DNA of 64,000 nt, from NCBI GenBank assembly GCA_036525795.1, contig DATCZS010000123.1, positions 10,717 to 74,716 on the forward strand. Reading direction: 5' to 3'. The notes beneath the pieces were generated by a model. It was given only the letters and a program-made list of their open reading frames with translations. It was not told the DNA's origin and searched no databases. The stretch is from Acidimicrobiia bacterium (GTDB taxonomy: Bacteria; Actinomycetota; Acidimicrobiia; Spongiisociales; ZC4RG35). How positions within the stretch are numbered: the first letter of the stretch is position 1; each line of letters opens with the position of its first letter. The translations under genes were made by a program, and so were the position numbers. Shown here piece by piece: positions 6,817-64,000 of this stretch.

Positions 6817-8196
6817 TCAGCGGTCTACGGCGTAGACGCGCCACGACCCTGGCACGCCCCGCAGCTCGTGCTCGCCCCGGTCCACGAACGACACGCCCGA
6901 CCCGGCGCTGATGTCCCGCACCGAGCCCGACACCAGGATCTCCCCCGCTCCCGCCATCCCGGCGATCCGCGCCCCGATGTGCACCGCCAACCCGGCGATG
7001 TCGTCGCCAACCAACTCGACCTCGCCCGTGTGAACCCCCGCCCGCACCTCCAGCCCGTGGCGAACCGCCTCGTCGATGATCGCCTCCGCGCACCGGATCG
7101 CCCGCCCAGGCCCGTCGAACCGGGCGAGGAACCCGTCACCCGCCGACCCGACCTCGATCCCACGGTGGGCAGCGATCTCGCGTCTGGCGGCCGCATGGTG
7201 GGTTTCCAGCAGACCGCGCCACGCGGCGTCACCCATCCGGGCCGCCCGATCGGTCGAGCCCACGAGGTCGGTGAACAGCACGGTGGCCAGCACCCGCTCC
7301 GCCTCGGGCTCCATCCGTTCACCGGTGAGGAACTCCCGAATGTCGGGGACCACGGCCTCGGGCTTCATCCAGGCCAGGTGCTCGGTCCCCGACCGTTCGA
7401 CCAACCGGCCCCCGGGAATGTGCTCGGCGAGGTACCGGCCGCTCTCGATCGGCACCACCCGGTCACCGATGCAGTGGAGGACGAGCGCCGGGACGCGGAT
7501 ACTCGGAAGGACCGACCGGACGTCGATCTCACGGGACGCGAGCTGCCATGCGAGAGCCTCTCGGGGACTGGCGGCGTTGCGGAGCAGACGCGAGAGGTGC
7601 TCGGTCGCCCACGCCGGGTCGTCCAAATCCTCGCCGAAGAGGCCGATCGCCCACCCTTCGGACGCCGAGCCCCAGCGGTCCTTGAAGCTGGCGAGGTACT
7701 CCTCGAACCATTCGTCGTCGCCATCGCCCCAGGGCCATTCTTCGTCGGACCGCTCGCGGACTTCGGCGCCCTGGAGCACGAGATGGGTGACCCGCTCGGG
7801 GTGGGCGGCGGCGAAGAGCATCGAGAGCGGCCCACCCTCCGACTCGCCCATGACGGCAGCCCGCTCGATGCCGGCGTGGTCGAGGACGGCGCGGATGTCG
7901 TCCATGCGTGTCTCGAGCGGGGTGCCCGGGGTGCCACGCGACGAAAGACCCATGCCGCGCTTGTCGTAGACGATGAGCCGGCAGAACTCCCCCAGCGCCT
8001 CGGAGAAGCGACGGAAGAGCGGAAATGCCCAGTTGACGTCGAGATGGCTGACATACCCGAGGGTCCAGATGAGCGGGATGTCGCCCTCACCCGTGATCGT
8101 GTAGGCGATGTCGGCCTCATCGGCGGGCGCGTAGTGGATCTCGGGCATGGAGTCAGGGTACCCATTCGTCGCGATCGTCCTCATTGGTCGGTCCAC
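6817..8196 (-). CDS. Alpha/beta-hydrolase fused to a class III adenylate/guanylate cyclase catalytic domain (LipJ/Rv1900c-like)
   Basis: The N-terminal half is an alpha/beta hydrolase fold. The C-terminal half has cyclase-homology-domain motifs (VLFTDLVGST, GDGFLARF, RAGVHTGEVE). Confidence 0.8.
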   Translation of the reverse strand: MDRPMRTIATNGYPDSMPEIHYAPADEADIAYTITGEGDIPLIWTLGYVSHLDVNWAFPLFRRFSEALGEFCRLIVYDKRGMGLSSRGTPGTPLETRMDDIRAVLDHAGIERAAVMGESEGGPLSMLFAAAHPERVTHLVLQGAEVRERSDEEWPWGDGDDEWFEEYLASFKDRWGSASEGWAIGLFGEDLDDPAWATEHLSRLLRNAASPREALAWQLASREIDVRSVLPSIRVPALVLHCIGDRVVPIESGRYLAEHIPGGRLVERSGTEHLAWMKPEAVVPDIREFLTGERMEPEAERVLATVLFTDLVGSTDRAARMGDAAWRGLLETHHAAARREIAAHRGIEVGSAGDGFLARFDGPGRAIRCAEAIIDEAVRHGLEVRAGVHTGEVELVGDDIAGLAVHIGARIAGMAGAGEILVSGSVRDISAGSGVSFVDRGEHELRGVPGSWRVYAVDR

Positions 8197-52665: not shown

Positions 52666-53457
52666 ATGGACCAACCCCGCGGCGGATTCACTGACGAATG
52701 GCGGTCGATGGACCGGTGGCAGCAGGTCGTGCTGGTCTCGCTTGGCGCACTCGTCGTGGCGCTCGCCGCCATCGCCCTGGCGCTGGCCGGTGGCGGCGAC
52801 GAACAGACCGCAGCTCCCGGGAGCACCGTGACCACCACCACGACCGCCACCTCGACGACCGCCACACCGTCGACCACGACCACCACGGAACCGCCCACCA
52901 CCACCTCCACGGAACCGCCCACCACCACCACGATCGCCACGACCACCACGACCGTCGCTCCCGAGTCGGTCCTGACGATGCGGCCAGACGGGTTGGGTGA
53001 GGTTCTGTTCGGCGACGACGCAGACGCCGCGGTCGCCGCCCTATCCGCAGTGCTCGGCGAGCCTTCCGACGACACGGGATGGCTGACAGACGCCGAGACC
53101 TGCATCGGGTCCGAAGTGCGATTCGTCACGTGGGGGTCGCTGCGGGCGTTCTTCTCCGACGGCCCCAGCGATTGGGCTCCGGCGGGGGTGAGGCACTTCG
53201 CCAGCTACGACCAGTCCCCCGCCATCGGCAGTCCGCTGCTCGAACTGCAGACCACCGAGGGGGTCGGAATCGGAAGTCCGGTGGGCGACGTCCGTGCCAT
53301 CTACGGCGATGACGCCGTGATCACGGGCGACCCGCTCTTCGGGGACCTGTTCCAGGTGGTCACCTCCGGGGCGGGCTACCTGTGGGGCCTGCTCACCGGA
53401 CCGGATGCCACCGACACGGTTGCCTCGATCAGCGGTGGGTTCTCCTGCGGGGAGTGA
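52666..53457 (+). CDS. Membrane-anchored protein with a poly-Thr/Pro linker
   Basis: TM helix, then a TVTTTTTATSTTATPSTTTTTEPPTTTSTEPPTTTT linker, then a globular domain. Confidence 0.5.
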   Translation: MDQPRGGFTDEWRSMDRWQQVVLVSLGALVVALAAIALALAGGGDEQTAAPGSTVTTTTTATSTTATPSTTTTTEPPTTTSTEPPTTTTIATTTTTVAPESVLTMRPDGLGEVLFGDDADAAVAALSAVLGEPSDDTGWLTDAETCIGSEVRFVTWGSLRAFFSDGPSDWAPAGVRHFASYDQSPAIGSPLLELQTTEGVGIGSPVGDVRAIYGDDAVITGDPLFGDLFQVVTSGAGYLWGLLTGPDATDTVASISGGFSCGE

Positions 53458-53515
53458 TCCGGGCCGTCGCATCGCCCCGGATCGACATCCACCGATCTTT
53501 CCTACACTGCGCTGC

Positions 53516-54565
53516 GTGTCCAGGACCCCGAGACTCCTTCTCGCGCTCGCGTTGATCGCAGCCGCCTGCGGCGAGGCCGTCGCCGAGACGACGACCACCA
53601 CGACGACCACCACGACGACCACCGCTCCCACCACGACGACCACCACGACGACAACCACGACCACCACCCTGCCCGTCGACCCGGTGTCGCCGATCTCGGG
53701 GCTCCCGGTCGAAGACATCTCCATGCTCGACCAGCGGGCGTACCTGATCAAGGTCGACAACTCTCCCCCCGCCCGGCCCCAGACGGGCATCCTCGAGGCG
53801 GACGGCGTCATCGAACTCTCGGTCGAAGGCATCACGCGTCTGGCGGTGGTCCTCCACATGGGGAGCCCCGACGTGCTGGGTCCCGTCAGGTCGGCTCGAC
53901 CCACCGACTACCAGCTCGCCCGTCTGATCGGTGCGCCCCTGGTGGTGTCCGGCGGACAGGATTGGGTCCTCGAAGACAACAGGCAGGGGGGCGCAGCCAT
54001 CATCGGCGACCTCGGCCGCCCGCTCACCTTCCGCAGTTCCTCCCGGCGCGCACCGCACAACCTGTACCTCCGCACCGCCGAACTGCGAGACCTCGCCGAC
54101 CGTCTCGACCTCCCGGCCGAAGCTCCCCAGGCGCTGTGGACATTCGGCCCTCTCCCCGCCGGGGCCGAGGACGCGACGGCCATCACCATGGACTTCTCTC
54201 CGTCGCTGGTGGCAGGGTGGACCTGGGACGGGACGAGATACCTGCGCACAACCAATGGGGTCGAGCACAAATGGGTCGACTCGGAGGGCGTCGTCGACCA
54301 GATCGCAGCAGACACCCTCGTCGTGTTGTTCACAGGGACGTTCCTGCAGAGCGACCCGTCCGGGGGCCCTGCGCAGGCCGTCATCTCGATCGGCAGCGGG
54401 AGAGCGCTGGTGTTCGCCGGTGGTTCGGTCGTCGAGGGGCACTGGCAGCGACGCCGGGCAACCGACCCGTTCACGCTCACCACCGAGGACGGCGAAACCC
54501 TCGAGGTCCCGCCCGGGTTCCCCTGGATCTCGCTGTTCCCTCGCAACGGCGAGGTGTCGTGGTGA
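53516..54565 (+). CDS. Lipoprotein with a poly-Thr linker
   Basis: GTG start. Lipobox LLLALALIAAAC followed by about 30 Thr. 349 aa. From memory it may be DUF3048-like; I could not confirm this. Confidence 0.5.
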   Translation: MSRTPRLLLALALIAAACGEAVAETTTTTTTTTTTTAPTTTTTTTTTTTTTLPVDPVSPISGLPVEDISMLDQRAYLIKVDNSPPARPQTGILEADGVIELSVEGITRLAVVLHMGSPDVLGPVRSARPTDYQLARLIGAPLVVSGGQDWVLEDNRQGGAAIIGDLGRPLTFRSSSRRAPHNLYLRTAELRDLADRLDLPAEAPQALWTFGPLPAGAEDATAITMDFSPSLVAGWTWDGTRYLRTTNGVEHKWVDSEGVVDQIAADTLVVLFTGTFLQSDPSGGPAQAVISIGSGRALVFAGGSVVEGHWQRRRATDPFTLTTEDGETLEVPPGFPWISLFPRNGEVSW

Positions 54566-59617: not shown

Positions 59618-61228
<1,611 letters not shown>

Positions 61229-62521: not shown

Positions 62522-63334
62522 TCAGGGCACTCGCCACCAGATGGTCACGAGCTCACGCTGTTCGTCCCCCACGTAGAGCCGGCCGTCGACCTCGGTGAGG
62601 TCGAGCACCGCGTCGAGCTCCGTCCAGCGGTCGCGGGGAAGGACCAAGCGCCGCCCGAACACCTCCCTCAGCTCGTCCATGCTCTCGAAGTACAGCCCGC
62701 CCTGTCTGGTCCACCGATCGACATTGGGCGAACGCCCGATCAGGGCAGCCACCACCTCCGCGAGGAGGTCGGCGGTCGGACCGCTGGGGCGGTCGAGCCC
62801 GTGAAGGATCCGGTAGTACGGTGCCAAACCGGCCCACGGGTGCCGATCGCTCAACTCGAGCGCCACGCCCACCCCGGCACGGTCGATCATGGCCTCCAGG
62901 AAGGGAACGATGTCCCAGACGTCGTACACCACGTGGGCGCTCATCACGACGTCGGCGGGTTCCACCGTCTCCGCAGCCTCCGGCCACGGCAGCGGCACCA
63001 CCTCGACTGCGACCCCCAGCGCGGCCGCCTCCTCGGCCAGTCCGGCCGCCATGCCCGGATCGGGCTCGACTGCCGTCACACGACATCCGGCCACGGCGAG
63101 CGGCAGCGATGCCCTCCCCCGCCCGGCCCCGACGTCGAGCACCGATCCCGCCGCCCCGACCAGGGATCTGACCACCTTGGTGGTGTGCGGCTCGGGAGCG
63201 TCGGCCGCCACCGCCGAGCGCCGCTTCCAGAACCGTTGTGGCCAGCCATACGGCGACTCGTCGACACCGGCCAGGAGCTCGTCGGGAATCCGCCACGCCT
63301 CCAGCTCCGATCGCCAGCGTTCCGCCGGCGTCAT
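62522..63334 (-). CDS. Class I SAM-dependent methyltransferase
   Basis: Motif I VLDVGAGRGR. The tool ORF was trimmed to MTPAERW, whose ATG overlaps the ferritin stop (ATGA). Confidence 0.6.
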   Translation of the reverse strand: MTPAERWRSELEAWRIPDELLAGVDESPYGWPQRFWKRRSAVAADAPEPHTTKVVRSLVGAAGSVLDVGAGRGRASLPLAVAGCRVTAVEPDPGMAAGLAEEAAALGVAVEVVPLPWPEAAETVEPADVVMSAHVVYDVWDIVPFLEAMIDRAGVGVALELSDRHPWAGLAPYYRILHGLDRPSGPTADLLAEVVAALIGRSPNVDRWTRQGGLYFESMDELREVFGRRLVLPRDRWTELDAVLDLTEVDGRLYVGDEQRELVTIWWRVP

Positions 63335-63840
63335 TCCCCCTCTGCCCCGGCCGTGCGCCCCCCCAGCTCGCGGTCGAGCAACAGCAGAGCGGCGCCGTTG
63401 CCTTCGATCATCCGCAGCTGTGCGAGCAACTCCGAGATGGCAGCCTCCTCTTCGACCTGCTCCGCGAGGAACCATTGGAGCAGCGGGAAACTGGCGGCGT
63501 CCGCCGCGGCCGACGCCTCCTGGTACAACTCGCCGATGGCCTGAGTCACCCGGCGCTCCTGCTCCAGGGCGACGGCGAACACATCTGCCGGCGATTCGAA
63601 CCCGCCCGCCGGGGCGGGAAGAGGCCCGAGCTGCACCACGTTTCCGCGATCCAGGACATAGTCGAAGAACTTGAGGGCGTGCACCCGCTCCTCTTCGGAC
63701 TGGACCCGCATCCACGACGCAAACCCCGACAGACTCCGATCCTCGAAATAGGCGGCCATCTGCAGGTAGGCATTCGACGATTCGAGTTCCAGGTCGATCT
63801 GGGTGTTGAAGGCGTGGGCGAGAGATTGGGGCATTTCCAT
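63331..63840 (-). CDS. Ferritin (non-haem bacterial ferritin-like)
   Basis: Ferritin four-helix-bundle diiron residues (E..H in EEERVHALKFF). Trimmed to MEMPQSL. Confidence 0.7.
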   Translation of the reverse strand: MEMPQSLAHAFNTQIDLELESSNAYLQMAAYFEDRSLSGFASWMRVQSEEERVHALKFFDYVLDRGNVVQLGPLPAPAGGFESPADVFAVALEQERRVTQAIGELYQEASAAADAASFPLLQWFLAEQVEEEAAISELLAQLRMIEGNGAALLLLDRELGGRTAGAEGE

Positions 63841-63906
63841 GGGACCCACGATATCCCGTGGCGATCGGCAGGGCGCCTGCCGAGCCGGGCTCTGCACTCA
63901 GCCATC

Positions 63907-63990
63907 AGCCTCAGGACTCAGGACTCGAGACTCGAGACTCAAGACTCAAGACTCGAGACTCGAGACTCGAGACTCGAGACTCAGAACTCG
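63907..63990. repeat. Heptanucleotide tandem repeat (GACTCRR)x12, immediately upstream of the ferritin start
   Basis: Direct reading gives gactcag gactcag gactcga gactcga gactcaa gactcaa gactcga x4 gactcag aactcgg. A 7-nt unit cannot keep a reading frame. Confidence 0.8.
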
Positions 63991-64000
63991 GGATCAGCCG

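Follow-up and report, generated by a model that had tools for sequence, protein, structure and literature searches.

The last 100 bases of the window (the whole 64-kb stretch of DNA analyzed here) contain a tandem array of 7-nt units, located between a ferritin gene and a divergently transcribed gene for a radical SAM enzyme. We consider it fairly probable that this array is a heptanucleotide VNTR, driven by slippage and located in a promoter spacer under weak constraint, that reflects a general bias toward 7-nt repeats and exerts at most a modest tuning effect. The array belongs to the known class of heptanucleotide SSRs and is documented here in uncultured Acidimicrobiia.

Array structure and genomic setting

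The features referred to below are listed in window coordinates.

63331..63840, minus strand: ferritin gene (ATG at 63840, 169 aa, PF00210), product identical to HEY5685727.1
63848..63853, minus strand: putative ferritin -10 element TATCGT, 7 nt upstream of the ATG, from a comparative motif scan
63865..63883, no strand: 19-bp palindrome TCGGCAGG-CGC-CCTGCCGA, centred ~34 nt upstream of the ferritin ATG
63884..63905, minus strand: degenerate heptamer-like tail (ATGGCTG AGTGCAG AGCCCGG ...) on the ferritin side of the array
63906..63991, no strand: heptanucleotide tandem array, from sequence reading, Tandem Repeats Finder (TRF), shuffles and allele comparison
63990..64000, no strand: conserved distal flank GGGATCAGCCG, matching the contigs that extend further

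Direct reading of the sequence revealed 12 units arranged head-to-tail, GACTCRR on the plus strand or GAGTCYY in the ferritin sense. They span 84 nt, at 63906-63989 when parsed as GAGTCYY or at 63908-63991 when parsed as GACTCRR; beyond the array, 9-11 nt of the window remain, according to how the units are parsed. In the ferritin sense the window allele reads GAGTTCT, (GAGTCTC)4, (GAGTCTT)2, (GAGTCTC)2, (GAGTCCT)2, GAGGCTG, with an exact GACTC core in 10 of the 12 units and six CTCGAG sites. TRF assigned a period of 7 with 8.7 copies, 96% matches and a score of 108, as well as a period-21 superstructure with a score of 117. When (GACTCRR)3 was searched with at most one mismatch, 10 overlapping matches were found at 63908-63991 and zero elsewhere in the 64 kb, compared to a chance expectation of 0.00 in 100 dinucleotide-preserving shuffles of the window. 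The array is also the only period-7 array with at least 3 copies in the window, and it forms an AT-richer island (56% GC versus 69% for the window). These results confirm the first-pass annotation, which had described 12 copies over 84 nt about 65 nt upstream of the ferritin start, with CTCGAG in half of the units and the window ending inside or just after the array; the array-to-ATG gap is indeed 65 nt, and the end falls just after the array. Whole-spacer lag-7 autocorrelation in the window lineage was 0.57, and the tail at 63884..63905 may represent decayed repeat units. The window also contains ACC-rich tandem repeats with periods of 3, 12 and 24 (52831-52958 and 53588-53668), which encode poly-threonine linkers near the N-termini of the adjacent plus-strand ORFs 52666-53457 and 53405-54565; unlike the heptamer array, these repeats are coding.

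The record for the identical ferritin is named 'MAG TPA: ferritin [Acidimicrobiia bacterium]', and the relatives of the window ferritin are Acidimicrobiia MAGs. Contigs running past base 64000, a step that the first-pass annotation had recommended, were obtained by exact-protein look-up of the window ferritin. Beyond GGGATCAGCCG they continue for 35 nt up to the GTG start of the divergent gene, placing the array ~46 nt from that GTG. The divergent gene encodes an AmmeMemoRadiSam-system radical SAM enzyme (TIGR04337, 617.9 bits versus a cutoff of 220), and its neighbor encodes Memo-like protein B of the same system (TIGR04336). In related contigs the array fills a spacer of 180-220 bp between the ferritin and radical-SAM genes; the full set of values is 181-252 bp, the two longest containing scaffold gaps. 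The array is therefore bounded on both sides and is not the edge of an extended low-complexity stretch belonging to a gene upstream, the outcome that had been named as evidence against a promoter repeat.

We also considered the array as a coding low-complexity part of an upstream gene, or as an assembly artefact, and rejected both; we give this reading practically no credence. In favor of a coding stretch, the 84 nt are open in every plus-strand frame. However, no minus-strand frame is free of stop codons, the radical-SAM GTG is preceded by an in-frame TAG at a distance of four codons, and the radical-SAM protein spans TIGR04337 end to end (1-349 of 349) from its own residue 13. In addition, 7 nt, the length by which the alleles described below differ, is not divisible by 3. 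Together these observations establish the array as non-coding, as had been called almost certain from the window itself. An assembly artefact is ruled out because over 20 independent assemblies, drawn from the four sources NCBI, ENA, JGI and Logan, contain the array.

Allelic variation among strains and lineages

Contigs with ferritin identical or 99% identical to that of the window showed 3-4 mismatches per 10.6 kb outside the array (flanks ~99.97% identical). Six complete alleles were recovered from these near-identical strains, and all six were mutually different. They are listed below by the last two bases of successive interior units, in the ferritin sense.

Window, 12 units: TC4 TT2 TC2 CT2 between GAGTTCT and GAGGCTG
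L093, 12 units: TC3 TT4 TC1 CT2 between GAGTTCT and GAGGCTG
L002, 11 units: TT1 TC3 TT2 TC1 CT2, last unit AAGGCTG
L004, 11 units: TT5 GT1 CT3 between GAGTTCT and GAGGCTG
L096, 11 units: TC CT TT TC3 CT3 between GAGTTCT and GAGGCTG
L005, 10 units: TC2 TT3 TC1 CT2 between GAGTTCT and GAGGCTG

Partial contigs added at least two further proximal unit patterns. The alleles differ in runs of adjacent identical units, and both end units are fixed: GAGTTCT is conserved distally and GAGTCCT GAGTCCT GAGGCTG proximally, with the strain variation confined to the interior. Differences in whole-unit runs between fixed ends are the pattern expected from slippage with local homogenization. The slipped-strand mispairing suggested in the first-pass annotation thus predicted what was observed, and the strain comparison that it proposed revealed 10-12 units at ~99.97% flank identity and 4-15 units in sister lineages; an invariant copy number, which would have spoken against the proposal, was not found. 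With 7-nt copies exceeding chance, an intergenic non-coding site and whole-unit copy-number polymorphism, the array shows the properties of a heptanucleotide SSR/VNTR.

Assemblies frequently break at the array. Two ENA scaffolds contain N gaps inside it, and 69 of the 86 collection blocks consist of 2-5 kb contigs, of which those sampled begin inside the array. Such breaks would arise at any repeat that exceeds the assembly k-mer in length, and contig ends and gaps by themselves therefore do not prove heterogeneity within a population. There appears to be a second recurrent break point at ~60640-60650 in the ABC-F ATPase gene; many independent short-read contigs begin in the array and all end ~3.3 kb downstream at almost the same place, and these shared ends occur in contigs from different runs (L006-L010, L094, L229 and L230).

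Close relatives were reached by exact-protein look-ups. In three sister lineages with 90-91% nucleotide identity, the synteny is unchanged and an array is located at the same site, composed of GAGTC followed by GT, TC, TT or CT. The unit counts were 15, 15, 14, 13, 14, 11 and apparently 4, the 4-unit allele (L228) coming from a k=31 assembly and possibly being collapsed. An identical 15-unit allele was present in two different samples (L220 and L222), with 14 units in a third, which indicates that the array is variable and not wildly unstable.

In lineages at ~80% ferritin identity (~80% flank identity where measured), the same spacer is filled with other 7-nt units, as follows.

L091 spacer: AGTCCCA-type units and (CCTGCGA)3
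L092 spacer: (GTCRTGG)3 and (CGTGCCR)4
L217 spacer: ~20 GGGACKT units, reaching the -10
L218 spacer: ACGTGNN and ACTTGCC units

Lag-7 autocorrelation in these spacers was 0.43-0.66, compared to ~0.25 at other lags. An array, with turnover of its unit sequence, was thus present in all lineages sampled from the clade at ~80% flank identity or above. Set against a background of 7 arrays in 158 kb of Acidimicrobiia-labelled loci, this presence points to persistence or a locus-specific propensity and not to chance. It could be that persistence in all sampled lineages, despite a background of ~1 array per 22 kb, reflects selection rather than drift. Among ferritin relatives with up to 75% identity, no array was found upstream of the ferritin gene. 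Likewise, a ferritin-profile scan of a genome collection in which the window species is absent gave a best match of 68% identity, and the relatives at or below this value carried no array upstream of ferritin; synteny in the P0003 relative differs from that of the window locus. Elsewhere in the clade, L091 has (ACGTTGA)4.6 at 7614-7645 in the aminotransferase/ABC-F spacer, and TRF reported none at the orthologous position in the window lineage (L002), which indicates that heptamer arrays are gained and lost in further spacers within the clade.

In the reading that we favor, the array would gain, lose and homogenize whole 7-bp units by replication slippage, and a general mutational bias toward 7-nt repeats would act in the weakly constrained divergent spacer. 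The near-palindromic unit may let either strand fold back and could aid slippage by stabilizing slipped intermediates. The interior unit consists of CTCGAG plus one base, and (GAGTCTC)n is 6/7 self-complementary, the maximum for a 7-nt unit. The predicted single-strand fold is a hairpin of CTCGAG blocks with T-T mismatches at -19.9 kcal/mol; compared to dinucleotide shuffles, the fold energy was not significantly better (z = -1.8 and -1.3). A link to methylation or restriction through GANTC (CcrM/HinfI-type), GAGTC or CTCGAG gave no signal in the window, with observed/expected ratios of 0.87-1.0.

The same folding data bear on the idea that the array is a structural or protein-binding element, either a cruciform or hairpin that buffers or insulates under the supercoiling of divergent promoters, or a platform with multiple sites for a protein with affinity for the repeat or for AT-richer DNA. 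The maximal self-complementarity, the predicted CTCGAG-block hairpin and the local GC dip at the array are all consistent with it, and about one-third of the arrays in other phyla form inverted pairs, which suggests that fold-back is recurrent in this class. Nevertheless, the fold does not stand out from shuffled sequence, and the units AGTCCCA, CCTGCGA, CGTGCCR and GGGACTT of the ~80%-identity lineages are by eye not self-complementary, so the property is not conserved. Copy number is unconstrained, the 7-bp spacing is unlike that of known heptamer-binding regulators, and IdeR, Fur and PerR boxes were not found in the spacer. We therefore regard a structural or binding role as the basis of the array as quite improbable.

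Putative promoters flanking the array and possible effects on transcription

On the radical-SAM side, a (C)TGACA-17 nt-TAGGTT-6 nt-GTG arrangement is located just outside the window (L002 4447-4482). It is kept in three lineages, i.e., the window lineage and two at ~80% identity, with a differing sequence in the 17-nt spacer. On the ferritin side, TANNNT was present 6-8 nt before the ATG in 16 of the 27 Acidimicrobiia-type ferritin loci, including all five array-bearing lineages scanned, which have no Shine-Dalgarno-like sequence; ferritin loci without TANNNT generally have an AGGAG-type site instead. A TANNNT element 7 nt before the ferritin ATG, in combination with the absence of a Shine-Dalgarno sequence, fits a leaderless transcript. 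These comparative signatures suggest that both genes are leaderless with core promoters outside the array, and that the array is probably untranscribed DNA between them. A scan of the spacer for E. coli-type promoters and terminators gave 0 matches, its consensus being unsuited to actinobacterial TANNNT promoters, so the promoter positions rest on comparative conservation.

Relative to the putative leaderless starts, the array extends from about -47 to -130 for the radical-SAM gene and from about -66 to -150 for ferritin. It is thus nearer to the radical-SAM promoter (from about -47) than to the ferritin promoter (about -66), and its edges are 11 nt from the putative radical-SAM -35 and ~57 nt from the putative ferritin -10. 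Contingency SSRs are sited between the -35 and -10 elements, in the leader or in the ORF; by the comparatively deduced promoter positions, the array occupies none of these places. Its location outside the putative core promoters speaks against a switch that turns expression on or off through -35/-10 spacing. The earlier suggestion that copy number changes spacer length or operator number therefore lacks positional support, since the terminal units are constant as well. With the core promoters and constant end units outside the variable interior, unit number would alter only the distance and rotation between the promoters, each copy-number change shifting their separation in 7-bp steps of ~240 degrees. 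The -10 to -10 distances were 159, 162, 166, 169, 176, 191 and 198 bp, a spread which indicates that promoter-to-promoter helical phase is not conserved.

The 19-bp palindrome at 63865-63883 falls at least partly where the -35 region of the ferritin promoter would be expected. Iron-storage genes may carry 19-bp palindromic iron boxes upstream, for example the tandem boxes of M. tuberculosis bfrB. No IdeR/DtxR, Fur or PerR box above background was found in the spacer; the best matches were 9/19 for IdeR and 8/19 for Fur, compared to mean background maxima per 260 nt of 9.4 and 9.3. In sister lineages with an identical ferritin protein, the palindrome is present in some and replaced in others by the heptamer-like GATCGCT GATTGCT GATTGAC, reaching the -10 region. 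Because it is replaced in some lineages, the palindrome is not an essential operator, and its replacement by heptamer-like units indicates that the whole stretch between the core promoters is plastic. L218 contains CCTGCC-N9-GGCAGG at a similar site. Operators of the SARP/OmpR type consist of heptamers spaced 11 or 22 nt apart and overlap the -35; in contrast, the array units are contiguous with a period of 7 nt and are not adjacent to a -35.

The closest functionally studied analogue of the array is the (ATCTTTC)n repeat of H. influenzae hmw1A/hmw2A, which shares a 7-nt unit upstream of the gene, a varying copy number and breaks in short-read assemblies (PMC12721329). In hmw, the 7-nt units form part of the transcribed 5'-UTR, base-pair with a G-rich arm and are cleaved by RNase III; the repeat determines the adhesin level, higher copy number leading to lower expression (PMC12721329). 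The array, by comparison, appears to be upstream of leaderless promoters in a free-living host and adjoins housekeeping genes. Following the hmw precedent, the array might be transcribed from an upstream promoter and act as a 5'-UTR hairpin, and the repeat could self-pair as RNA. The leaderless signatures at ferritin and radical-SAM make such a transcribed hairpin unlikely, the ~46 nt between the array and the radical-SAM start are taken up by the putative radical-SAM promoter, and an Rfam search of L002 4200-4900 gave no family match at E <= 1. We judge this possibility to be highly improbable.

It is also possible, although unlikely in our view, that the array is a contingency or rheostat locus, as the first-pass annotation proposed, in which unit number tunes transcription of ferritin and/or the radical-SAM gene via the distance or phase between an element and a promoter, with evolvability under selection. 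Polymorphism of copy number and unit order at ~99.97% flank identity, the range of 4-15 units across the genus and the retention of the array in all sampled lineages despite unit-sequence turnover would fit such a locus, as would the near edge of the array at ~-47 relative to the radical-SAM promoter, where upstream elements are typically located, and the decrease of hmw expression with copy number (PMC12721329). However, the array is outside the putative core promoters, sequence up to ~-60 on both sides is unaffected by copy number, and all helical phases occur. The identical 15-unit allele of L220 and L222 shows that the switching rate is not extreme. Furthermore, iron storage and a housekeeping-type radical-SAM system are atypical contingency functions, heptamer arrays are generic in related genomes, and a regulatory role was not found for the comparable Xanthomonas repeats (PMC4692102).

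The VNTR reading therefore remains the one we favor, with a functional effect that would be weak. Modest tuning, supercoil buffering or binding by a protein are possible. Three features count against a reading based on mutational bias alone, namely that this is the sole period-7 array with at least 3 copies in 64 kb, that its unit has maximal self-complementarity, and that it forms an AT-richer island where upstream activating elements for the putative radical-SAM promoter would usually be located.

Heptanucleotide arrays in other genomes and significance of the locus

To our knowledge, neither the GAGTCYY unit nor a repeat of this kind in an uncultured Acidimicrobiia host has been described before. 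Period-7 repeats as such are common. In 27 Acidimicrobiia-labelled loci (158 kb), period 7 was the commonest tandem-repeat period, with 7 arrays or ~1 per 22 kb, and in 458 kb around the ferritin genes of 80 other genomes TRF identified 56 period-7 arrays with at least 3 copies, compared to 13 for the second-ranking period. According to the accounts of Mrázek 2007 given in PMC4692102 and PMC4679880, no other class of long SSR is as abundant in many bacteria as the heptanucleotide repeats, the genomes richest in them include Actinobacteria, and polymerase slippage was proposed as their cause. Both our counts and this literature, as far as those accounts convey it, speak against the first-pass view that such repeats are rare in high-GC actinobacteria.

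As summarized there, the long SSRs of Mrázek resemble the array in being intergenic tandem 7-nt units beyond chance, in constituting the dominant class and in their proposed slippage origin; the difference, within the scope of those summaries, is that strain-level alleles are documented directly for the Acidimicrobiia array. The Xanthomonas GGGAATC and Nostoc GGGGAYT repeats are similar in that the gene pair is kept while length and sequence vary; in Xanthomonas the heptamer repeats are located between the same gene pairs across species, and no regulatory role was found (PMC4692102). The Acidimicrobiia array shows this pattern at 99.9%, 90% and 80% identity. The Xanthomonas and Nostoc units are G-rich, adopt G-quadruplex or i-motif structures and occur less often than expected between divergent genes (PMC4692102), whereas the Acidimicrobiia array has no G-tracts, is quasi-palindromic and is located between divergent genes. 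Cyanobacterial STRR and Beggiatoaceae TAACTGA repeats are likewise intergenic tandem heptamers of environmental bacteria, with different units and taxa (PMC4679880). Most TAACTGA repeats are located within a few nt of start codons, suggesting a translational role (PMC4679880); the array, in contrast, is 65 nt from the ferritin start codon without a leader. The GGTGCCC hot spot of P. fluorescens pflu0185 shares 7-nt gain and loss as a local hypermutable switch, although it is in coding sequence and acts by frameshift (bioRxiv 10.1101/2024.05.01.592015) and the Acidimicrobiia array is non-coding.

Arrays of (GAGTCYY) with at least 4 copies were present in at least 120 public metagenome contigs, of which the 80 examined span 34-73% GC. 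A tblastn search of the ferritin and radical-SAM proteins against the examined contigs gave no matches, so these arrays are unrelated loci and not further alleles. Four of the loci (L109, L122, L157 and L168) apparently represent one orthologous locus of an unrelated mid-GC organism, with (GAGTCCT)n of 12, 11, at least 10 and 9 units, and provide a second example of copy-number variation for this unit type. At L102 189-683, two inverted (GAGTCCY)4 arrays surround a small 23S_rRNA_IVP/four-helix-bundle gene (PF05635, 131 bits), the first array overlapping the 3' end of the PF05635 ORF; this layout suggests that an inserted gene cassette can be enclosed by heptamer arrays on either side. The high-GC L152 (376-538) carries (GAGTCYY)5 with the same TT-to-TC-to-CT progression as in the window and an inverted (GACTCAT)6 85 nt later, both intergenic after the stop codon of the upstream gene, in an unrelated locus without a ferritin or radical-SAM gene.

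Inverted pairs, in which two arrays with mutually reverse-complementary units are separated by 2-430 nt, could form long hairpins. We identified 35 pairs among 215 arrays (~1/3 of arrays) in contigs of Gemmatimonadota, Chloroflexota and others. Examples include L046 10-127; L047 957-1037; L071 100-239 and 2850-2953; L072 207-275, 2851-2949, 4113-4260 and 6323-6488; and L088 167-279 and 4434-4518, among others. In some genomes an inverted pair is present in nearly every intergenic spacer of the fetched locus; the window array has no inverted partner. Units related to ACGTGAA/TTCACGT were found in L033, L036, L044, L045, L056, L072, L042 and L218, which represent Acidimicrobiia, Chloroflexia and Gemmatimonadales, and some heptamer unit families may be shared across phyla.

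Reports since 2007 rank heptanucleotide repeats first in abundance among the long SSRs of bacteria, and the available account describes their role in free-living bacteria as unknown (PMC4692102). The locus offers a clean natural allelic series, with 4 to 15 units, several unit orders and an adjacent palindrome that is present or absent, and its simple architecture of two back-to-back, apparently leaderless promoters is well suited for asking whether heptamer repeats affect transcription. The array is also a strain-typing marker for this uncultured Acidimicrobiia population and a recurrent break point of short-read assemblies. It is unlikely, on present sequence evidence, that the array was selected as an evolvable tuning element whose quasi-palindromic units respond to supercoiling and whose unit number (4-15) sets the coupling or output of the ferritin and Fe-S radical-SAM genes. 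If this were true, a contingency-type locus would have been kept across a genus-level clade of Acidimicrobiia, in an environmental bacterium that is free-living and non-pathogenic.
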